This document shows, piece after piece, positions 33,189 to 63,869 of a stretch of DNA of 64,000 bases. Position 1 is the stretch's first letter. Every line of letters starts with the position of its first letter. Below the pieces are notes generated by a model. It was not told the origin of the DNA. It saw only the letters and a list, made by a program, of their open reading frames with translations, and did no database searches. A program made the position numbers and the translations under genes. Where the stretch lies: the IMG/VR virus record IMGVR_UViG_3300048583_000100, positions 33,428 through 97,427 of that record, one strand, 5' to 3'. The DNA is from a virus.

Positions 33189-34388
33189 TTATCCTTTTAG
33201 GAGATTGACGAAGCTAGTGCAGTAAAGCTTGGCGTCAAAGTTGATTGCTGCTAGCTGCGCTTCGACGATATGCCTGCGCAGTTCGATGTCAGTCTTGAGC
33301 AGCTGAATCTTTTCAGACAGCTCTTGGCGAGTGGAGACGTACAGGAAATCTGCGAGCTGTGGGTCAGCTCCGTATACACGACGAAGCTGATCGAGGTCGA
33401 TGTCGATGAAGGTAACGACGTTAGACCAGATAGACTCGTACGCGCGCTGTGCCATGTCATTGATGTCTTCGTACCACGGGTCACCGATGACACAGTGAGC
33501 CATAGCTTCGTTCATCTTAGGCAGCATCTCGTCGTAACGAACTGCGCCAGTGAAAGTCGGCTCGCGAGTACCAGGCGGAAGACCTGGAGTGCCCTTGAGC
33601 TTGTCGAAGTCTTCGCTGTCGATTTTACCGAACATCTCAACGGAGATATCCGAAGGATGACCGAAGTAGAACTTCACCATCTTTTTGATGCGCTTACCAC
33701 CTCGCATCGTGCCACCATACGAAAGGTCGACCTTAGGAGTCGGGTTGAATGGAAGCTGTTCGTTGAGGCAGGGGAACTTCTCGAATGGGAAGTGGATGAT
33801 GTTCTTCGGCCCGACTTCATTCTTACCGAAGTCAGCAAGCACCTTCTCAACATCATGGGGCTGACTGAGGTACGTGATGTCGGTACGCGTGATGTTGAGC
33901 TGCTTCTCAGTCCACTTGCTGCCCCATTCTTTCTTCTTGACAGAAGGCCACACCTGTTTGAGGGTGAGTTCAGGATCGCAGAAGATGTAGTAAACAGGAC
34001 CATCGAATGCATTGATGATCTGGTAGTTGAGCAATTGTTCAGGGTCTTCGGCACCACCAAAGAAGTTGACATTGCCGTTTAGAACGACGAGAGCATCGTA
34101 CGGGAAGATGGTAGGACCATCAGTCTGAAGCGGCAGATGCGTACCCGGCAGACCACTAAAAGTTGGCCCATGCCAACTCGTGTATCCCTTCTCAAGGATG
34201 TCTGTAAGATTGTGCCACTTGTAATCCTCGACAAGGTTGTCCTTTTTGAGAATCTTCGTGTAGATGTGAACGTCAGCTCCGCCTTCCTTGAGCATCTTGA
34301 TGATCGACCGCGCCTCACCATTACCACCCGACGTATCGTTGGCATTGAAGGAGATGCGGGAGCCTAGCTTGATGACGGCTACTTTCAT
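33189..34388 (-). CDS. bgt: DNA beta-glucosyltransferase homologue (T4 BGT-like, GT-B fold)
   Basis: YDALVVLNGNVNFFGG, DLSYGGTMRGGKR.KKM, PTFTG and VIGDPWY are colinear with T4 BGT motifs (VNSSINFFGG, YGGSFRSGQR, PVFTG, IIGDKNY). Confidence 0.88.
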   Translation of the reverse strand: MKVAVIKLGSRISFNANDTSGGNGEARSIIKMLKEGGADVHIYTKILKKDNLVEDYKWHNLTDILEKGYTSWHGPTFSGLPGTHLPLQTDGPTIFPYDALVVLNGNVNFFGGAEDPEQLLNYQIINAFDGPVYYIFCDPELTLKQVWPSVKKKEWGSKWTEKQLNITRTDITYLSQPHDVEKVLADFGKNEVGPKNIIHFPFEKFPCLNEQLPFNPTPKVDLSYGGTMRGGKRIKKMVKFYFGHPSDISVEMFGKIDSEDFDKLKGTPGLPPGTREPTFTGAVRYDEMLPKMNEAMAHCVIGDPWYEDINDMAQRAYESIWSNVVTFIDIDLDQLRRVYGADPQLADFLYVSTRQELSEKIQLLKTDIELRRHIVEAQLAAINFDAKLYCTSFVNLLKG

Positions 34389-54231: not shown

Positions 54232-55860
54232 TCAGAACTGCTGAATCAGCTGAGGAGCTGCCGAGTCAAAGCCGACGATGTCGAGCATACCAGGGTCCTT
54301 CGGGTCGGCGATCGTGAAGCTAGTCGTCGAAGTACCGCAGACGATCAGCTTCGCATCGCGGTTGTACTGCTTGCGGTAGCGCGCGAGCGCTTCTACCGGC
54401 TGCATACGACCCGCGTAGGTCTCGTTGTCCGTGATGACGATGAACTTGTCAACAGCAGACATGTTCTTCTCGATGGCCGTGAGCATTGGCAGCGAGCAGT
54501 CAGTCGAGCCCCAGCTGAAGTTGCGAATCACGTTGAGCACGTTGTCGAGACGCATTGCTGGCGTGATCTTGAGCTCGCTCATCTTCGAGTTGAAACCACC
54601 AACCCAAGAGTTCGACTCACGCTTCACGACTGCCATTGCGAGAACACCGGCAACTTCTGCAGCGGTGAGGTTAGGAGCACCGATGGCGCGTGCACCGAAC
54701 ATCGAGCCCGAGCAGTCAACGCCGATGAAGTGGCCCTGACCAGTGCTTTCGATGTACTGGAACGAATCATAGAACGCATCGTTCAGCGCATCGAGGACCG
54801 CCTGTACAGGCTGCCAGGTGAGAGTACCGCGATCACCATGGCCCTGGCGGTACTGGTTGAAAGCGTTCAAGATGGTGATCGGGTGAACTCGACCGTTCTT
54901 GATTGCCTCTGCATCAGTCAGCTTGGCGATGACAGTCTTCAGATCGCTCGAGAGCGGCTTGATGACGCCAATGTTGGTGAGCTGACCCAGCTTACGGATC
55001 AGCGCAGTCATGCCCATGTTCTGGACCAGTGCGCCCATTACATCAGCGTCACGGTGCAGTTCAGTTGGCAGCATTTCCCAGCTGATATCGCGGTAGTCTG
55101 CGATCACGCGGAGAGCGTTCTTCTTGTTCTGTGGCTCACGCTTCAGCGACTCGACAGCCGTGTACAGGCCTGGCAGAGCAACATTGGCTTCAGTGAAGGT
55201 CTCCGCACCCTTGACGGTGTAGCGGAACATGTTCGACTGGACGTCAGACTTCGGCTTCACGTGTGCGAGGCGGAGGACGTCGCGGTGCGACCAACCATCA
55301 CGAGACTGGTACTTGAGCAGCTGGACGGCGAGCTTGTCTTCGCCACGCTTGGTGTACCATGCAGCAACACCGCGCTTCGCAGCAGCGTTCCACTTGCCAA
55401 GCTCGTCAAGTGCAGAGACGAACTGGAAGAGATGCGTACCGATACGAGCCACACGAGGCAGAGCCTCGTAAGCAGCAGCGACAGTTGCTTCGTTGCCATG
55501 GATGGCGCAAAGAGCCAGCGCGAACACAGCTGGGTCGTTCTTTGGCGCGCGACCTTCGGTTGAGAACTCGACGATGCGATTCACGACACGGATGCCGTCT
55601 TCGTGGATGCACTTGATGACGTTCTTACCGGCATCCTTCGTCAGCTTCTGGGCAGAAGCGTAGTACGACGGCTTGTCGGAACCGAGGATGAGGAAGCGGT
55701 CGAGGTAGCCCCAGTTGTCTAGGACGAACGTGAAACCACCGGCATAGTTCTTGGCCATTTCGGTCTCACGACCAGCAATTGGCGAAGTCTGGCGGGTCTG
55801 CGTGGTAGCAGGGTTCGTCGACAGCGTCGAGGCGTAGAAGTTCTTGAGGTTCTTTGACAT
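54232..55860 (-). CDS. rsr: Ro60/Rsr TROVE + vWA domain RNA-binding protein
   Basis: NYAGGFTF, RFLILGS, RIGTHLFQF, KYQSRDGWSHRDVLRLAHVKP, MTALIRKLG, RVHP, DCSGSM (MIDAS), TDCSLPM, TDNET, GFDS. Confidence 0.96.
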   Translation of the reverse strand: MSKNLKNFYASTLSTNPATTQTRQTSPIAGRETEMAKNYAGGFTFVLDNWGYLDRFLILGSDKPSYYASAQKLTKDAGKNVIKCIHEDGIRVVNRIVEFSTEGRAPKNDPAVFALALCAIHGNEATVAAAYEALPRVARIGTHLFQFVSALDELGKWNAAAKRGVAAWYTKRGEDKLAVQLLKYQSRDGWSHRDVLRLAHVKPKSDVQSNMFRYTVKGAETFTEANVALPGLYTAVESLKREPQNKKNALRVIADYRDISWEMLPTELHRDADVMGALVQNMGMTALIRKLGQLTNIGVIKPLSSDLKTVIAKLTDAEAIKNGRVHPITILNAFNQYRQGHGDRGTLTWQPVQAVLDALNDAFYDSFQYIESTGQGHFIGVDCSGSMFGARAIGAPNLTAAEVAGVLAMAVVKRESNSWVGGFNSKMSELKITPAMRLDNVLNVIRNFSWGSTDCSLPMLTAIEKNMSAVDKFIVITDNETYAGRMQPVEALARYRKQYNRDAKLIVCGTSTTSFTIADPKDPGMLDIVGFDSAAPQLIQQF

Positions 55861-55906
55861 TTTGATGCTCCTTGGATACGGCTGTTTGGCATAAACAGCA
55901 AATGTA

Positions 55907-56250
55907 CATCACTCGATTCTGTTATCTCCTCCACAAAATTTGGAGTCGGAGACTTCAGTTGACGACCCGAAGGTATAGCCGAAGCTACTTGCCAACCTAG
56001 CCCATGATTTTCAGTCATGTGCGGCCAATCTGGTTATTTCTAACCAGCAACTCAGACACTTTCGAGTGTCAAAATATCGCCATTTCTACAGCGAGAATAG
56101 CTTCCTGTTTGGGGGTTAAATCAGGCCAGGAAACGGCCTACCTATTTTGCTTGACGCTCGGAATAGGCACCTAGTCCTTGCGGACGCCACCACTTCAGTA
56201 TAGGATAACCAACATCCGCCGGTGGAAGAGCTAACAGAATCGAGTGAGTG
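55907..56250 (-). ncRNA. Large Y-RNA-like structured RNA (about 340 nt)
   Basis: Perfect 16-bp terminal inverted repeat (55909..55924 with 56232..56247) continuing into a Y-like stem-bulge and TTATC; interior filled with hairpins; sits directly upstream of Ro60. Confidence 0.72.
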
Positions 56251-56266
56251 TTTGGGGAACGTTGAG

Positions 56267-56346
56267 GGTTCGAAAGAAGGAAACTAAGTAGTGACGATTG
56301 GAGGTGATCTGCAAGATAACCAATCGTCTCCGGTTTCATTCGAACC
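56267..56346 (-). ncRNA. Small Y-RNA-like stem-bulge RNA (about 80 nt)
   Basis: GGTTCGAA/TTCGAACC, GAAAC/GTTTC and GACGATTGG/CCAATCGTC stems; loop begins TTATC. Confidence 0.72.
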
Positions 56347-56365: not shown

Positions 56366-56395
56366 ATTATACACTCGATGAGACGGAATGTAAAC
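56366..56395 (-). promoter_or_regulatory. Early-type promoter GTTTAC-N18-TATAAT driving the Y-like RNAs and Ro60
   Basis: Consensus match about 20 bp upstream of the small RNA. Confidence 0.78.
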
Positions 56396-56414: not shown

Positions 56415-56993
56415 TTATGAAGCGTCAACCTGACTTTCGTCAAGCTTGTAGATGATGCCAGGGCCAAGTACGAAACTGTTCTGCGGGAGAATCAGCTTCT
56501 TTGTCGGGTCACCATCGAGGTTTACGACACCATCGAAAACGAATTTGCGGATATTGCCGTCAATCCACTTGACCATAACCCAGTCGTAGATTGGGAAATC
56601 CTTGTACTTGGAATTGCTCTTCTCCGCCTTCTCTACAATGTCAATCGAGAATTCGCGAGTGCCTGCAATCTTGCCTGGCTTTCCAGGTAGATCGACATTG
56701 CCATTCTTGGAAGCTTCTTCCAGATCAACGGCGTGTTGAAGGTCTTTGACGTACTCGTCAATGTTGTTGCCGTAGATTTTGATTTGCTGGTACTGCGCGT
56801 AGATGAGCAGAATGATTCTGCCGCCAATGAATGAAGTGATGAAGCTCACACTCCCCGAAAGAAGTGTGAGCTCACCGAACCAAAACAGAACAAGCGGGAC
56901 GAAGATGATGTTAGCTATCCAGGGCATCTTCCTCGCCAACTTTCGCTGGCGAGTTAGAGCGAGGGTCATCTTTTCAGACAGACCCGCCGTCAC
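56415..56993 (-). CDS. Predicted membrane protein
   Basis: Two N-terminal hydrophobic segments. Confidence 0.65.
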   Translation of the reverse strand: MTAGLSEKMTLALTRQRKLARKMPWIANIIFVPLVLFWFGELTLLSGSVSFITSFIGGRIILLIYAQYQQIKIYGNNIDEYVKDLQHAVDLEEASKNGNVDLPGKPGKIAGTREFSIDIVEKAEKSNSKYKDFPIYDWVMVKWIDGNIRKFVFDGVVNLDGDPTKKLILPQNSFVLGPGIIYKLDESQVDAS

Positions 56994-58674: not shown

Positions 58675-58750
<76 letters not shown>

Positions 58751-58759
58751 ACATTGTGT

Positions 58760-59215
58760 TTATTTATCACCAGCAAGAAGCTTGGCAGCCTTCCTGACGA
58801 TTGAAGCCTGTGACTTTCTGCCCTGAGCAATGAACTGCTTCTCGGTTAGCCAGTGAGTCGACTTGGTTTCGTAGTGGGGTTTCTTGAAGTCGTCTTTGTC
58901 CTTGACCTCGCCCATGTAAATCGTCATCTTGTAAGACTCTTTCTTACCACGGACCTTGCTAGAGAAGACTACTTGAATGGTTTCCTTGATGAGATTGCCA
59001 CGCTTAAGACCGAGTTCCTCTCGACCTTCACGAAGCGCAGCTTCATATACGCCCTCACCAGTGTCAATTCCGCCCTTAGCTAGCTGGGGTTCTGCACCAC
59101 CATACTGCGCTTTAGAAGGCGTCATGAAGTAAAAGAGCGGCTCACCATTCTCATAGACATAGGGGATGAATCCGGCACGCTCTCTCACGTCAGGTAGAAT
59201 CTCGTCTAGCTTCAT
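58760..59215 (-). CDS. Nudix hydrolase (MKLDEIL N-terminus)
   Basis: KGGIDTGEGVYEAALREGREELGL Nudix box. Confidence 0.92.
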   Translation of the reverse strand: MKLDEILPDVRERAGFIPYVYENGEPLFYFMTPSKAQYGGAEPQLAKGGIDTGEGVYEAALREGREELGLKRGNLIKETIQVVFSSKVRGKKESYKMTIYMGEVKDKDDFKKPHYETKSTHWLTEKQFIAQGRKSQASIVRKAAKLLAGDK

Positions 59216-59220
59216 GAACC

Positions 59221-59667
59221 TTACTTTACAGCCTTAGGCTTCTTGATCTGTAGGTCCATGTTTACGAAGTTGTTACCCTGCATACCCTGCTCGGAGTAAC
59301 CGACGCTCTTCACGTACTGTGTGAGCTTCTTCTTGTCAAGGAGTTCCTTGAAGGACTTGAGGAAGTTCGAGTCAGTGTAGATGAGGTCATGCTTCGATGC
59401 CTTGTAGCCGTCAAGCACGATGTCGATGACGCCGTCAGCGGTCTTGCTACCATCATTTTCTTCGTCGAAGTAGTGAGGACGAATTGCCTTGATGACGAAG
59501 GTCATCTCTTCATCGTTCTTACCCCATAGACCACGGCTCTTCTTGCCATAGGCCTTGACCTTTGAGCCGACTAGAGCTGCGCTCATAGCCTTCAGAATTT
59601 CCTTGGTCGTTGTAGGAACTGGAGCAGCCTCGTTTACAACCTGCTTGATTAGTTCGAATGTCTTCAT
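59221..59667 (-). CDS. Late protein (MKTFELIKQVVNEA), putative internal head protein
   Basis: ATAAATA at 59708..59714; IYTD..F and YSEQGMQG motifs. Confidence 0.7.
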   Translation of the reverse strand: MKTFELIKQVVNEAAPVPTTTKEILKAMSAALVGSKVKAYGKKSRGLWGKNDEEMTFVIKAIRPHYFDEENDGSKTADGVIDIVLDGYKASKHDLIYTDSNFLKSFKELLDKKKLTQYVKSVGYSEQGMQGNNFVNMDLQIKKPKAVK

Positions 59668-59719
59668 GTTGATTCCTTAGAATGGATGGAGCACTTGGTT
59701 CGCAGGGTATTTATTGCTC

Positions 59720-60391
59720 TTACCACATTAGATCGAAGAACCCGCCGAGAACTTTGTCACACTTTACAGTGCAGCCGCTCGCATGATCCTTTACGACATT
59801 GTCTTGGAAGCGGTACGTTCTCATCTTGTCACCTCTCATACCTGAGCCGACCTGCTGCTTACGCGTAGAAGACAGCTCTGCTCCAGCGATCATAGACTGT
59901 CGACGGTTGACTCTTTCGAGGATTGCTGTCTTAGCTTCGTCAAGGGAATTCTCTCGACTACGACATGATGCTGTGGCTGTGGTTGAGGTCGGGATATGGA
60001 TGATGCGACAGGAGTTCTGGGTCTTGTTACGATGCTGCCCACCAGGTCCAGTTCCGGAGTACCACTCTATGCGGAAGTCGCGATCGTTAAATTCGATTCG
60101 CTTTACTTCCTTTGGGTCTATGATTGCGACAGTGACGGTAGACGAATGAACACGTCCACGTTTTTCATTCGGTGGGATTCGCTGAACGCGATGGCCACCG
60201 GACTCTTTCTGAAGCTCTGATAGATCGTCGCCCGTTACTTCAATTGAAAGTTCACCGGGCCTATCGTCTATCAGGCGGTGAGTTCAACCGAAGCGAACGA
60301 ACATTTTGGTGTAAGCCTTCGCCAGATCACGTGCGAACAGCTTAGCATCTTCTCCGCCTTCGGCGGCTCTTAGTTCGATAATGCGCTTCAT
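59720..60391 (-). CDS. Class I peptide chain release factor homologue lacking domain 1, with in-frame TGA at codon 36 (not in the ORF track)
   Basis: Manual translation: MKRIIELRAAEGGEDAKLFARDLAKAYTKMFVRFG*THRL...KESGGHRVQRIPPNEKRGRVHSSTVTVA...SGTGPGGQHRNKT...GSGMRGDKMRTYRF...MW; SD AAGGAG; 224 codons, same frame on both sides of the TGA. Confidence 0.9.
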
Positions 60392-60402
60392 TGAATTACT
60401 CC

Positions 60403-60606
60403 TTAGATTGGATCACACTCTCCGCGTTCGATCATTATTGCTCGAACTGCGTCATTTACTTCTTGCTTCTCTTCTTCGCTAAGCTCCCACCAAAGGGTGT
60501 CTAGCTTATCTAGAATTTCATCTTCTACGCTATCGTCGGCATTGCCATCTCGCGCAGCCAGAAGATACCGAGTTTCTTCCATGTACTTTTCGACTTTCGT
60601 TGTCAT
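60403..60606 (-). CDS. Small acidic hypothetical protein
   Basis: Coupled to def. Confidence 0.6.
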   Translation of the reverse strand: MTTKVEKYMEETRYLLAARDGNADDSVEDEILDKLDTLWWELSEEEKQEVNDAVRAIMIERGECDPI

Positions 60607-61091
60607 GCTACATTCCTTTCTTCTGGGTCGGCATACTTATCGAAGGTGATGCCATTGAGATGGTCGAGTTCGTGCTGGAAGCAAATAGCGTCAATGCCAT
60701 CCAGATCAAGAGTGAACTCCTCAAAGTTCTCGTCGACGGCCTGGACTTGAATGCTGTTTGGACGAGCAACAGTCATTGCGACACCAGGAAAACTGAGACA
60801 CCCTTCCTTGAAGGGTTCGCGCTTTCGACTGACGGATAGAATTTCTGGATTGATGAACACTCTACGACCAACACTCTTGGGGTATCCAGTTTTGCTGGTG
60901 TCCATCACGAAGATGCGGGCGGCACAGTCCACCTGAATAGCAGCAAGCCCGATCGCCCCGTGATAGTACATGGTTTCAAACATGTCAGGTACGAAATGAT
61001 TTATCAGGAAGTTGCCAGCTTCGTCGTCGCGTACAGCAATGCTATGACAGTGAAGTCTCAGGTCTGGACTTTTGAGAAGCGGCAGAATCAT
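60603..61091 (-). CDS. def: Peptide deformylase
   Basis: AIGLAAIQV, EGCLS, QHELDHLNG. Confidence 0.96.
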   Translation of the reverse strand: MILPLLKSPDLRLHCHSIAVRDDEAGNFLINHFVPDMFETMYYHGAIGLAAIQVDCAARIFVMDTSKTGYPKSVGRRVFINPEILSVSRKREPFKEGCLSFPGVAMTVARPNSIQVQAVDENFEEFTLDLDGIDAICFQHELDHLNGITFDKYADPEERNVA

Positions 61092-61107
61092 GGGTACGCT
61101 CTAGAAT

Positions 61108-61181
61108 TGGTCTCGCTGGTGGGATTCGAACCCTACAAACTCAACCTTCGGAGGGTCGAGACCGATCCATCGGCAGCGAGA
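61108..61181 (-). tRNA. Atypical tRNA-Arg(CCG)
   Basis: Acceptor CTCGCTG/CAGCGAG + A-CCA; anticodon loop CTCCGAA; T-loop TTCGAAT; D-arm reduced. Confidence 0.65.
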
Positions 61182-61217
61182 TATTGGTGGGTCGCAATCT
61201 ATTTAAGCGACCGTATG

Positions 61218-61457
61218 TCAGTGGGTAATCAGCCCCAGCATCTCTGCTAGATGACTGAAACCTGGGACCTTAGTCCAGAGAAAATGTTCAAGCGGGAAGA
61301 GCAGAGTCTGCGCTGCCCAGAAGGACGGCATCTTCACGAAGCTCTTACAGTGGTGATAGCACTTGACTAGAAAACCCCGCTCGTCTGCATGAAAATGTGG
61401 AGGGCAGTTGTGGTGATCGTCAAGATTGATATGAGGGTGTTCGTGGTCATGCGCCAT
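61218..61457 (-). CDS. His-rich small protein
   Basis: Probable start MAHDHEHPH. Confidence 0.5.
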   Translation of the reverse strand: MAHDHEHPHINLDDHHNCPPHFHADERGFLVKCYHHCKSFVKMPSFWAAQTLLFPLEHFLWTKVPGFSHLAEMLGLITH

Positions 61458-61492
61458 GTTTTCATTCTCTAAAGTAGGGTGGAACAAACGGG

Positions 61493-61891
61493 TTACTTCT
61501 TTGCGTTTAGAATTTCCTCAATGGCGGATGCACTGCCACGAATGTAAATCTCAGCCTTAGGCTTTCTGTCTCTAAAGCTTGAGCTGACGGAAACTTCAAC
61601 TCCAGATGGGTGCTTGAATTTTGCACCGTAAGTATCGCTAGAGAAGTCTCCGCGAGACGAGCCACCATCGGCTCTCATGTCAGCCTTATCGAACCCCAAT
61701 GTTCTGAGGTATTCGTTAGCGCCATGATCTTTTGCGGTATGATTGAGATTAGAAGAATACGAAAGACTTGAGCCAGTGCTCGACGTGTTCTTTACAGTCG
61801 GCTTTGCGTAACCGCAATGCTTGGCTATTTCAGTAGCCAGCGTAAGTGCGGGGTCCTTGCTGACAGCTTCGAGCAGGTCATTGAGTTTCAT
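61493..61891 (-). CDS. Late protein (MKLNDLLEA), putative internal head protein
   Basis: ATAAATA at 61914..61920. Confidence 0.7.
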   Translation of the reverse strand: MKLNDLLEAVSKDPALTLATEIAKHCGYAKPTVKNTSSTGSSLSYSSNLNHTAKDHGANEYLRTLGFDKADMRADGGSSRGDFSSDTYGAKFKHPSGVEVSVSSSFRDRKPKAEIYIRGSASAIEEILNAKK

Positions 61892-61924
61892 TAGAGTCTT
61901 CCGTTGAAAATTCTATTTATGCAA

Positions 61925-62001
61925 TGGTGCGCCCAGAGGGACTCGAACCCCCGGCCACAGACTTAGAAGGTCCGTGCTCTATCCAGCTGAGCTATGGGCG
62001 C
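61925..62001 (-). tRNA. tRNA-Arg(TCT)
   Basis: Canonical cloverleaf; loop CTTCTAA; CCA. Confidence 0.95.
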
Positions 62002-62010
62002 AGAATTTAA

Positions 62011-62163
62011 TCACGTGAGCTGGGTTCGAAACCAGCTGCTTCCTTGGTTGATAGCTATCGGGGCCAGATCGGCAGACCTCCCCGCTTCACTTCAACCCAG
62101 ATCCCACTCCGCCGATAACGGAAGCATAGGGGTTAATGCGTGTCCTTCCACGCCGTTACGCGA
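62011..62163 (-). ncRNA. tRNA-like RNA with a roughly 100-nt domain in place of the anticodon arm
   Basis: Terminal stem, D-like hairpin GCGTG-GAAGGA-CACGC, T-like hairpin AGCTGG-TTTCGAAC-CCAGCT, internal TGCTTCC/GGAAGCA stem. Confidence 0.55.
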
Positions 62164-62170
62164 TATCGAT

Positions 62171-62479
62171 TTAGTTCTGTAGCGCTTGCTTGTAAGACTT
62201 CATGTCGTAGTAGCGAGTACCGTTGACGTGCATTGAGGCGTAGGAATTGATCGTGTCAACTCCATTCTTCTCAACGTTCCATACAAAGGTTTCTGAATTG
62301 CCGCGATTGTCTTCCCACTTGGACGTAAACGTTGAGTGCTCGATAGAGCCGCTCTTGTTTCGGTATGGGCAGTAGTCGTGAGTTTCAATGCAGCGATAGT
62401 CATGCGCTTCGGTATAACGGGTGAGGATGTACCTCTTCAAGATTCCGTTTTCGTAGAAGTCTTCGCGTGTAGTGATCAT
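62171..62479 (-). CDS. Hypothetical protein
   Basis: ORF within the tRNA region. Confidence 0.55.
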   Translation of the reverse strand: MITTREDFYENGILKRYILTRYTEAHDYRCIETHDYCPYRNKSGSIEHSTFTSKWEDNRGNSETFVWNVEKNGVDTINSYASMHVNGTRYYDMKSYKQALQN

Positions 62480-62709
62480 CGCATTGCCTCGTATCGAGCC
62501 ATCTCTAAATCGTAATGGCTGGGCAAACCAGCATCAATCAAATCGGCATCATCAATGATTGCCTCGATGAGACTGCATTCTTCTGCGGTGTGGAATTGAC
62601 AGTGAGACCGTCCCCAAAATGCTTTAGCGATTGCTTCATTCGAGGGAGGATTGTTGCGGAGCTTCGCTAGCGGATGCAGGTCCTCACTCACGGCATGTAC
62701 CTCAAAAAT

Positions 62710-62784
62710 TGGTGCTTCCTGTCGGTTTCGAACCAACGACCTCTTCGATGTCAACGAAGCGCTCTACCACTGAGCTAAGGAAGC
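62710..62784 (-). tRNA. tRNA-Val(GAC)
   Basis: Cloverleaf; CTTCG-TTGACAT-CGAAG; CCA. Confidence 0.95.
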
Positions 62785-62793
62785 ATTTGAATT

Positions 62794-62867
62794 TGGTGCT
62801 CCCACCTGGTAGTGACCCAGGGTTTCCGCTTTACCAAAGCGGTGTAATGCCTTTATACTATAGGAGC
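62794..62867 (-). tRNA. tRNA-Thr(GGT), second copy with non-canonical T-loop
   Basis: CCGCT-TTGGTAA-AGCGG; T-arm CCTGG-GTCACTA-CCAGG; CCA. Confidence 0.8.
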
Positions 62868-63541
62868 GTCTTTATCTGTGACCATTCGAGCTGCTGTTCT
62901 CCAAGAACGATCACTCGAATTGCGTTGCGCTGTTGTGCTTGTGATATTTTGTTCGCATCTTTAGTCTGCAGATAGCTATTCTTTGGGTCGAGATAAACAT
63001 CAAAATCAGGTAGGTAAAAATCGGGGTAATATTTGTTTCCCAAATCAGTCCAAACAAATCCGATTTTTGGTCTTTGCCACTGTATACTATTCTCATCCAA
63101 AGATTCAGCCACCCGCACTTCCCATTTTGAATCGAACCATGTGTCGCGATACCATTGACCCCTGTTGGGATGCGGTCTGTAGCCGCCTAGGTTGCGAGCT
63201 TTGGCTGAGTCTGATAATTTTTTCCTACCAGCCTCAGTGTATTGCTTAACGACAATTTTATTGGCCTCGGCAACTGTTCTCGTTTTCATGAATGGCGTGA
63301 GAGCGCTTACCGCAACATTCATTTTCTTAGCCACGTCTCTAAGACTTAATCCTGAGTCATAGAGTTCCTGCGCTTTATATTTGTCAATTGCCGTCTTTGC
63401 GGGATCGCGTAATAGACCACGCTTTTTGAATCTAGAAATCTGACTCGCATGTAAATGATATTTCGTGCACACTGCCTTCCAGGTGCCTATCTTGTCGGCT
63501 TCAGATTGAAGCCAATCGAAATCATATTCGATTCTGCCCAT
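62858..63541 (-). CDS. HTH + PD-(D/E)XK endonuclease (homing-endonuclease-like) inserted in the tRNA cluster
   Basis: SGLSLRDVAKKM HTH; FDSKWE, YYPDFYLPDFDVYLDPK; AT-rich; own TATAAATA at 63569..63576. Confidence 0.75.
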   Translation of the reverse strand: MGRIEYDFDWLQSEADKIGTWKAVCTKYHLHASQISRFKKRGLLRDPAKTAIDKYKAQELYDSGLSLRDVAKKMNVAVSALTPFMKTRTVAEANKIVVKQYTEAGRKKLSDSAKARNLGGYRPHPNRGQWYRDTWFDSKWEVRVAESLDENSIQWQRPKIGFVWTDLGNKYYPDFYLPDFDVYLDPKNSYLQTKDANKISQAQQRNAIRVIVLGEQQLEWSQIKTLL

Positions 63542-63610
63542 AGCATTTATCCTTGAAAAAGCTAAGAATATTTATAGGAAGGACGTGTGCCATCATTGTA
63601 CGTGAATATC

Positions 63611-63687
63611 TGGCGGGGCGGACGGGACTTGAACCCGCGACCTCCGGCGTGACAGGCCAGCATTCTAACCAGCTGAACTACCGCCCC
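63611..63687 (-). tRNA. tRNA-Asp(GTC)
   Basis: Canonical cloverleaf; loop CTGTCAC; CCA. Confidence 0.96.
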
Positions 63688-63693
63688 TAAATT

Positions 63694-63787
63694 TGGCCCA
63701 CTGCCCAGTTTCCGAGACTGGTTTTCCTTAAGGGAATCGAACCCCTCACCAACCGCGCGCGTCGTTGGTCGCCAAAGTGCAGTGGAT
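63694..63787 (-). ncRNA. Rearranged tRNA-like RNA ending in CCA
   Basis: CCACTGC/GCAGTGG terminal stem + GCCA; canonical T-arm in an internal position. Confidence 0.5.
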
Positions 63788-63795
63788 AAATCATT

Positions 63796-63869
63796 TGGAG
63801 GCGTGGCCCAGAATCTAACTGGGGTACCAAGGGTTGCAGCCTCGTGCATAAACACTCTGCCACCACGCC
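63796..63869 (-). tRNA. tRNA-Cys(GCA)
   Basis: CGAGG-CTGCAAC-CCTTG; U73 discriminator; CCA. Confidence 0.92.

Follow-up and report, generated by a model that had tools for sequence, protein, structure and literature searches.

An RNA of about 340 nt, encoded directly in front of a phage Ro60 gene, is probably a Ro60 partner RNA that represents a large and novel form of Y RNA and belongs to one clade of phage Ro60 proteins. The DNA analysed (64,000 nt, positions 33,428 to 97,427 of IMG/VR virus record IMGVR_UViG_3300048583_000100; hereafter, the window) comes from a 97,427-base record with an estimated completeness of 27%, so that the window represents a fragment of a giant phage. The large RNA, supported by fold energy, comparison with 17 homologues and covariation, occupies positions 55906-56251 of the minus strand, on which the Ro60 gene and all parts of the RNA unit described below also lie. 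It is a conserved structured RNA linked to Ro60 genes: at all 17 homologous loci a long RNA of the same design is found at the same place with little sequence identity. Ro60, a major autoantigen, is conserved together with its Y RNAs from bacteria to humans. An earlier note, made from the letters of this DNA alone, had proposed that a Ro60-binding type of stem here carries a structured domain of unusual size, and its claims are taken up below with the results that bear on them.

The Ro60 gene and the terminal handle

The gene at 54232-55860 encodes a 542-aa protein of TROVE plus vWA architecture which, judged by its Pfam and PDB matches, is a canonical Ro60, as the earlier note had supposed of the neighbour of the RNA. 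Pfam recognised the Ro60 vWA domain PF25045 (2.3e-53) and the TROVE domain PF05731 (1.7e-32), and the PDB matches included 9nen, titled RNA-binding protein RO60 (2.6e-106), Xenopus Ro60 (1yvp, 2e-102) and Deinococcus Rsr (2nvo, 9e-102), while the match to the Ro60 of Thermus phage phiLo was weak (6e-6). The gene upstream of the RNA unit ends at 56415 and leaves 554 non-coding bases before Ro60; the large RNA stands 46 nt upstream of the Ro60 gene, a placement kept in all homologous loci.

The minimum free energy of the large RNA was -132.1 kcal/mol against -100.7 ± 5.1 kcal/mol in 100 dinucleotide shuffles (z = -6.2), none of which was as stable, so that the proposal of a stable fold held when it was computed. 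The two ends of the RNA are joined by a closing helix of 25 bp (56247-56222 with 55934-55909), made up of a perfect 16-bp helix, one G.A mismatch and a further 9 bp; the strand at 56222-56247 forms the lower handle stem with its long extension, and 55909-55934 is the 3' strand. Both the perfect helix and its continuation had been predicted at this place. Above it lies an asymmetric internal loop, in which CGG (56219-56221; CGR in the family, its C-G invariant in the alignment of 17 sequences) faces a 7-nt A/U loop on the opposite strand (55935-55941), A-rich and with a U run before a conserved G, which reads UUUG in 15 of the 17 homologues. The upper handle stem, S2, follows as 8 bp with one bulged U (56217-56209 with 55949-55942), and UUAUCC (56203-56208) comes directly after its 5' strand; the CGG loop, the upper stem and the UUAUC were thus all found where the earlier note had placed them. 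The sequence UGGUUAUC is nearly invariant in the alignment of the 17 homologues. The handle can accordingly be described as a lower stem, a CGR / A-rich-UUUG internal loop, an upper stem of 8-9 bp and UGGUUAUC, and its first three elements are present in all 17 homologues with covariation, the S2 strands (5' strand 56209-56217, 3' strand 55942-55949) forming a duplex of 8-9 bp in every one of them.

The homologues were gathered by scanning viral and metagenome contigs with the Ro60 protein, and 17 distinct loci remained after the removal of duplicates; they lie on uncultured phage contigs of up to 368 kb, and their Ro60 proteins are 51-76% identical to that of the window. At the nucleotide level, blastn matched the region to none of 50,697 phage records, and between the homologous loci it gave a single match of 27 nt, so that the alignment relied on anchors. 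The register of the closing helix was set by two invariant bases, the C of CCG and the G that follows the U run. Lengths of the homologues, taken as the span between a point 16 nt upstream of the conserved CCG and the final pair of the lower stem, ranged from 249 to 366 nt, against a Y RNA size of about 70-130 nt. A plain MAFFT alignment of the 17 sequences aligned the ends and one hairpin of the body, H7, well and scrambled the variable interior.

Pairing of the closing helix is maintained by compensation. Over 20 bp in the 17 homologues, 80% of the 340 positions pair although the 5' strands are only 34% identical, 3-6 pair types occur at each position, and swapping the 3' strands among homologues reduced pairing to 47% (maximum 55.6% in 1000 swaps). 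RNAalifold, applied to the MAFFT alignment, predicted 18 pairs in the closing helix, 17 of them changed on both sides, 8 in the upper stem, 5 in H7 and one additional 2-bp element, with compensatory changes in 29 of the 33 predicted pairs. Over 31 helix pairs, 83.3% of the cells were paired, compared with 59.5 ± 1.5% after shuffling (a value of 83.3% was reached in 0 of 500 shuffles) and with 36-46% when the partners were slid by one to three columns; double-change cells numbered 146 against 50 in the shuffled controls, and the covariation score was 0.679 against 0.248. For the upper handle stem taken separately, 89% of the cells were paired and 6 of the 8 pairs had changed on both sides. The fold itself had z ≤ -3.9 in 14 of the 17 homologues. 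Covariation upstream of phage Ro60 genes, which had been suggested as a check of the proposed structure, is therefore strong in this set.

The same terminal stem plan is shared by the large RNA, the neighbouring small RNA and the RNAs of YrlA type at other Ro60 loci, with CGR at the same position in all three, and it is on this likeness that the description of the stem as one of Y RNA type stands. The small RNA (56267-56346, about 80 nt) nearly matches Rfam RF01656, the nematode stem-bulge family that is homologous to Y RNAs, at 37.0 bits (cut-off 38, E 1e-5), in an alignment spanning both stem strands and the UUAUC; its ends pair in an 8-bp outer stem. The equivalent small RNAs of two other loci exceed the RF01656 cut-off, and the handle of the window's small RNA scored 17.4 bits with R1, a covariance model built from 23 YrlA-type RNAs. 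Furthermore, a handle word consisting of ACCGG, six free bases and UUGGUUAUC (14 specified bases) occurs exactly twice in the 64 kb, where 0.01 occurrences are expected. Both copies lie upstream of Ro60: one starts the large RNA, and the other is 111 bases further upstream, in the small RNA. Most close relatives also encode a small Y-like RNA (mid-sized in L161), and the large RNA stands alone in five lineages (L013, L099, L100, L017/L018 and L103).

None of the 29 bacterial Ro60 loci examined carried the large RNA, which on this sequence survey looks confined to one phage Ro60 clade. All 365 Ro60 proteins matched in phages were below 60% identity to that of the window; at least 120 Ro60 clusters of the clade, on contigs of up to 358 kb, were present at ≥ 59% identity in a collection of 5.8 billion proteins, and the best Ro60 relative among 185,579 species genomes was 46% identical. 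In the sample, long single-handle RNAs were found only beside Ro60 genes of the one clade. A permissive scan for long handle-closed RNAs also returned high scorers outside the clade, which were rejected as arrays of small Y RNAs or coding sequence. Other Ro60 loci of the sample (L109:4267-4791, L112, L115, L124, L077, L080, L154 and L199) carry arrays of three to five handle-bearing RNAs, in which minimal hairpins, tRNA mimics of YrlA type and mid-sized RNAs (170-190 nt) with other bodies are mixed; in L109 the handles appear nested within a longer stem.

The body of the large RNA

The handle carries a body of about 250 nt with about ten hairpins, and five hairpin loops in the window are GNRA or UUCG tetraloops. 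From the 5' side, hairpin H1 (56174-56185) has a GCAA tetraloop and is followed by a conserved UAGG linker; it recurs with other stems in L001, L002 and L003, the three lineages nearest to the window. The loop of H2 (56140-56168) begins with CCGA and in the relatives has 8 nt of the type R-CCGAA-Y-N, and five of the seven stem pairs have changed on both sides. H3 (56100-56134; 7 bp) keeps a C-rich loop on a stem that is wholly exchanged between the window, L001 and the pair L002-L003. H4 (56077-56094), with a loop of GUAGAA type, was obtained from RNAalifold and from hairpin comparison among the window and L001-L003, whereas H5 (56055-56070) and H6 (56030-56047, GAAA tetraloop) come from the window fold together with comparison with the relatives. 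H7 (56000-56022), present in 16 of the 17 homologues, is a hairpin of 5-11 bp that abuts a conserved UAGG (55996-55999), typically with U-A-C-C on its 5' side and G-G-U-G on its 3' side; 86% of its cells were paired, and 4 of its 5 aligned pairs had changed on both sides. Helix P8 (55957-55997; 7 bp) begins at the GG of this UAGG, ends just before a conserved GAAGU (55952-55956) and, in the window fold, encloses two hairpins with UUCG loops, H8 (55976-55987) and H9 (55965-55974). Its first three positions pair in 16-17 of the 17 homologues, and the third pair covaries (U-A in 8, A-U in 5, C-G in 2). All eight hairpins named in the earlier note were recovered with the loops given there; H4 and P8 had been overlooked.

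In the window and its three nearest lineages the order of these elements is constant and the stems are exchanged: H1-UAGG, H2 (CCGAA-type), H3 (C-rich), H4 (GUAGAA), H5, H6, H7 and the P8 domain. Of the 50 pairs that RNAalifold predicted on these four sequences, 27 are altered on both sides. Covariation in the interior thus refers to the window, L001, L002 and L003, while H7 and P8 were followed through all 17 homologues by anchor register. The conserved core of the family is the junction on top of the handle, consisting of UGGUUAUC with ACU, H7, UA, P8 and GAAGU; the hairpins inserted on its 5' side, about six in the large RNA of the window, vary in number and are connected by purine-rich linkers that are conserved.

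The H-type pseudoknot claimed for this part of the RNA was borne out in one half. Both of its helices can form in the window: a small helix of 5 bp (56135-56139 with 56123-56127), and the 7-bp stem of H3, whose 5' strand is the loop of the small helix and which is conserved with entirely different sequences in three lineages. The small helix shrinks to 3 bp in the relatives, and its in-loop segment has a competing partner at 56023-56027, in the linker just before H7 (RNAalifold columns 124-127 with 244-247); this pairing comprises 4-5 bp and shows three different Watson-Crick pairs at its middle position. Either of the two in-loop pairings would, on the modelled structure, form a pseudoknot with H3, which is plausible, and since only three lineages bear on it, the choice between them is unsettled.

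Some further pairings and readings were tried and given up. An extension of H7 by an outer helix of 3-4 bp and a pairing of UUAUC with GAUAG linkers were attractive by eye and were not kept across the homologues, and the reading of the H7 loop as an anticodon loop (GAA) was dropped because the loop is not conserved. H4 with the U-rich run after it scored as weakly terminator-like; since the same H4 with AUAUUUG recurs in the relatives, it is probably a structural element rather than a terminator. In the 5' third of the large RNA, five otherwise very divergent relatives (L004, L005, L009, L013 and L161) carry at the place of H2 a near-identical block of 17 nt around a GAAA-capped 3-bp hairpin with A.A mismatches, which is a candidate protein or tertiary contact.

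The transcription unit and its proposed mode of action

The order of the unit is promoter, small Y-like RNA, large RNA, hairpin and Ro60. A predicted promoter of sigma-70 type (TTTACA, 17 nt, TATAAT; 56366-56394) agrees with the consensus at 11 of 12 positions, a promoter-like box also precedes the RNAs in homologous loci, and no terminator was found in the window between the two RNAs and Ro60. This single, host-type promoter would drive the small RNA, the large RNA and Ro60 as one transcript. The hairpin between the large RNA and the ribosome-binding site of Ro60 (55881-55899) is kept in most of the 17 loci, as are the promoter box and the small RNA. The surroundings of this hairpin (55878-55902) are conserved in sequence, with a U run and GCUG before the loop and CAGCCGU after it, and in the most distant loci the flank on its 3' side runs into the Shine-Dalgarno sequence. 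A processing site and a translational operator are two possible roles for the hairpin.

Within such a polycistronic transcript, the 5' and 3' ends of each RNA would pair with each other and close it off, and the closing helices would mark the limits of the individual RNAs. RNase III is a double-strand-specific endonuclease that processes, among others, rRNA precursors. The 25-bp closing helix of the large RNA has the right length for an enzyme of this kind, and by extension from established RNase III biology it is most likely a double-strand processing stem that frees the RNA from the leader and that would also protect its ends. Ro60 would then bind the handle on its outer surface, as in the Xenopus complex of Ro with Y RNA. 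Some Y RNAs link Ro60 to polynucleotide phosphorylase and others present a tRNA mimic; in a comparable way, the body of the phage RNA may dock Ro60 onto a partner during infection, whether a nuclease, an enzyme of RNA repair or RNA processing, or a substrate RNA. The conserved single-stranded linkers and the loops of CCGAA type are the candidate contacts of the body.

It is also conceivable, if rather unlikely, that the body of 250 nt is an RNA machine in its own right, for which Ro60 serves as chaperone or delivery vehicle; it might then act as a host-RNA mimic that serves as a decoy against host defences that target RNA, or as a scaffold on which several RNA-processing enzymes are assembled, and phage Ro60 particles would amount to exchangeable RNA payloads on one handle.

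It is still a largely open question in the field how a Y RNA, through its variable end, determines the task of the particle. If the large RNA is a Ro60 partner of the Y kind, an autonomous domain of large size can serve as the "effector" end of a Y RNA, which would widen the range of Ro60 partner RNAs and would offer a compact pair of Ro60 and RNA for structural work. Moreover, giant phages carry the unit beside tRNA clusters, so that it may bear on the way in which phages manage or defend the translation apparatus.

Known RNAs, alternative explanations and neighbouring genes

Metazoan Y RNAs and nematode stem-bulge RNAs are RNA polymerase III transcripts of 70-130 nt with a simple loop region. 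The phage RNA resembles them (RF00019 and RF01656) in its lower stem, asymmetric loop, upper stem and a loop that opens with UUAUC; the large RNA as such gave no match to either family. GOLLD and ROOL are large non-coding RNAs with many hairpins, and some large phage RNAs lie near tRNA genes; the phage RNA differs from GOLLD and ROOL in its Y handle, its tie to Ro60 and the lack of any Rfam match. Among bacteria and phages, Y RNAs adjoin Ro60 in more than 250 cases (PMC4201824). The closest parallel is offered by YrlA and YrlB, which are known from Salmonella (rsr-yrlBA-rtcBA), Mycobacterium smegmatis and mycobacteriophages (Chen et al. 2014, PMC4201824): these RNAs likewise stand beside Ro60 (Rsr), have paired ends and share the handle with its CGR loop, upper stem of about 9 bp and GGUUAUC, and there too a module-free small RNA (YrlB-like) accompanies a larger one that bears a module. 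The differences lie in size (about 340 nt against about 100-130 nt), in the closing helix of 20-28 bp, in a body of about ten hairpins with conserved motifs of its own and in the lack of T-arm, D-arm and a nearby RtcB gene.

Other comparisons are looser. The Ro60 of Thermus phage phiLo binds two Y-like RNAs encoded upstream of it, Yrl1 and Yrl2, and forms ternary complexes with the polynucleotide phosphorylase of the host (PMC12135203; PDB 9KOP, 9L5Y). As in the window, a phage Ro60 is directly preceded by two Y-like RNAs with a CGAA-type motif in the handle loop; the phiLo protein is a distant one (E 6e-6 against 1e-102 for cellular Ro60), and its RNAs have canonical Y RNA features on a stem-bulge-stem plan, no large body being described for them (PMC12135203). 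In Deinococcus radiodurans, as far as the system is cited in PMC4201824 and PMC12135203, Yrn1, Rsr and polynucleotide phosphorylase form the degradation machine RYPER; the working model is alike, with Ro60 bound at one end of the RNA and an effector recruited at the other, and Yrn1 differs in being about 120 nt long and partly tRNA-like. A survey of jumbo phages refers to a tRNA-like partner of TROVE proteins (PMC7824862), and a study of Listeria phages suspects Y RNAs near an Rsr-like gene (PMC12282133). Full-text literature searches found no paper that describes a Y-type RNA as large as this one or with such a body.

Several results weigh against assigning the large RNA to the Y RNAs. It has some three times the size described for these; none of the Y-type models of Rfam (RF00019, RF01053, RF01656, RF02553) matched it, either at the gathering score or with E up to 10; and the R1 model gave 11.1 bits (E 3.2) on a segment, 56187-56228, that is the 5' handle only. 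For most hairpins, the interior alignment represents three independent lineages. Finally, neither an RtcB nor an RNase III gene was found on the 97-kb phage fragment, so that processing would rely on the host or on regions of the genome outside the fragment. The failure of the Rfam models is itself weak evidence, since an insert of 250 nt is beyond their span.

That the RNA is simply a diverged YrlA whose body is still a tRNA mimic, with H2 as a degenerate T-arm, H7 as the closed acceptor, UA as U8-A9, P8 as an expanded D-arm and the remainder as insertions, appears quite improbable. The order of elements does speak for a relationship: UAGG linker, H2 with CGAA in its loop (a CCGAA loop in the large RNA), H7, UA and the G-starting helix P8 parallel the variable loop, T-arm, acceptor hairpin, U8-A9 and D-arm of YrlA at other loci, and in the most distant relatives (L100, L017 and L018) H2 lies only 3-6 nt from H7, like T-arm and acceptor in YrlA. 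It is a reasonable inference that the body arose from an RNA of YrlA type which expanded and lost its T and D loops; such descent would not prove that tRNA mimicry has been retained. Other Ro60 loci of the sample have arrays of small Y RNAs and YrlA-type RNAs with T-arm, closed acceptor stem and D-arm, which provided controls. A pattern test for a T-arm with a 7-nt loop of UUCRA type gave no convincing case among the 17 large RNAs (two chance T-like matches fell in AT-rich members) against 8 of 8 YrlA-type controls, and a test for a D-arm with a conserved GG loop gave 0 of 17 against 6 of 8 controls. The loop of H2 has 8 nt on a stem of 6-7 bp. On the small and large RNAs, R1 aligned with the 5' handles only (11-23 bits, E 0.006-3) and, in the alignments displayed, skipped the tRNA-like part, and ARAGORN and the Rfam tRNA model RF00005 found no tRNA at the large RNA, the tRNAs of the window being restricted to 58675-63869. 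The handle is therefore common to the YrlA-type RNAs and the phage RNA, and the tRNA-like module is not. The claim that the body is not tRNA-like and has a different fold stands as regards T-arm, D-arm and Rfam matches, and is qualified by the parallel in element order with its possible descent.

A different objection is that the RNA is never released and acts in cis, as a leader of the Ro60 messenger through which Ro60 binds its own 5' untranslated region by the handle and controls its translation or stability. A shared promoter, the lack of a terminator between the RNAs and Ro60, and the hairpin conserved in most loci between the large RNA and the ribosome-binding site fit this proposal, which we nevertheless regard as clearly unlikely: closing helices of 20-28 bp isolate self-contained modules, as in processed Y RNA arrays and in rRNA precursors, a conserved body of 250 nt far exceeds the needs of an operator, and at other Ro60 loci the same handles are found downstream of Ro60 or in long arrays. 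Autoregulation and release of the RNA are not mutually exclusive. Large size, many tetraloop-capped hairpins and conserved single-stranded linkers could also suggest an independent ornate RNA, a ribozyme or scaffold, which merely shares the operon and whose terminal stem is a processing stem rather than a Ro60 site; the tRNA gene cluster nearby adds a likeness to some large phage RNAs that is drawn from general background. This is very improbable, as the handle is conserved in both sequence and structure and is shared by the neighbouring small RNA and by Y RNAs at other Ro60 loci, and long single-handle RNAs keep to the neighbourhood of one Ro60 clade in the sample. At E up to 10, neither the window's large RNA nor the RNA regions at ten homologous loci matched any Rfam family, and this includes GOLLD, ROOL, raiA, OLE and other large ornate RNAs as well as RNase P, tmRNA, 6S RNA and introns; known families were to this extent excluded, as the earlier note had advised. 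A chance fold or an unrecognised small protein gene, to which three short open frames (56-99 aa) overlapping the region might point, is refuted by covariation above all 500 shuffles and all slid controls, by the compensatory pairs, by the fold z of -6.2 and by stop-free frames that vary from 32 to 109 aa among the homologues with no conserved frame. A Ro60 partner RNA of the Y kind thus remains the probable identity of the large RNA.

Around the unit, a gene for a protein of 192 aa (56415-56993, minus strand) without Pfam or PHROG match lies directly upstream of the RNAs; the C-terminal part of its product is kept in place in most close relatives, with the exception of L001, L014 and the distant group. 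An RNA ligase of Rnl2 type (PF09414, 70 bits) is encoded on the same phage fragment outside the window, about 80 kb away (G000:C1:9362-9880). Seven tRNA genes were recognised by ARAGORN and Rfam 2.8-8 kb upstream of the RNA unit (58675-63869). Among them, the R1 model gave a weak match at 61950-62068 (minus strand; 19.8 bits, E 0.036), in this case with T-arm and D-arm, which overlaps a tRNA-Arg (61925-62001) and the sequence just upstream of it and could represent a tRNA-like element joined to the tRNA array.

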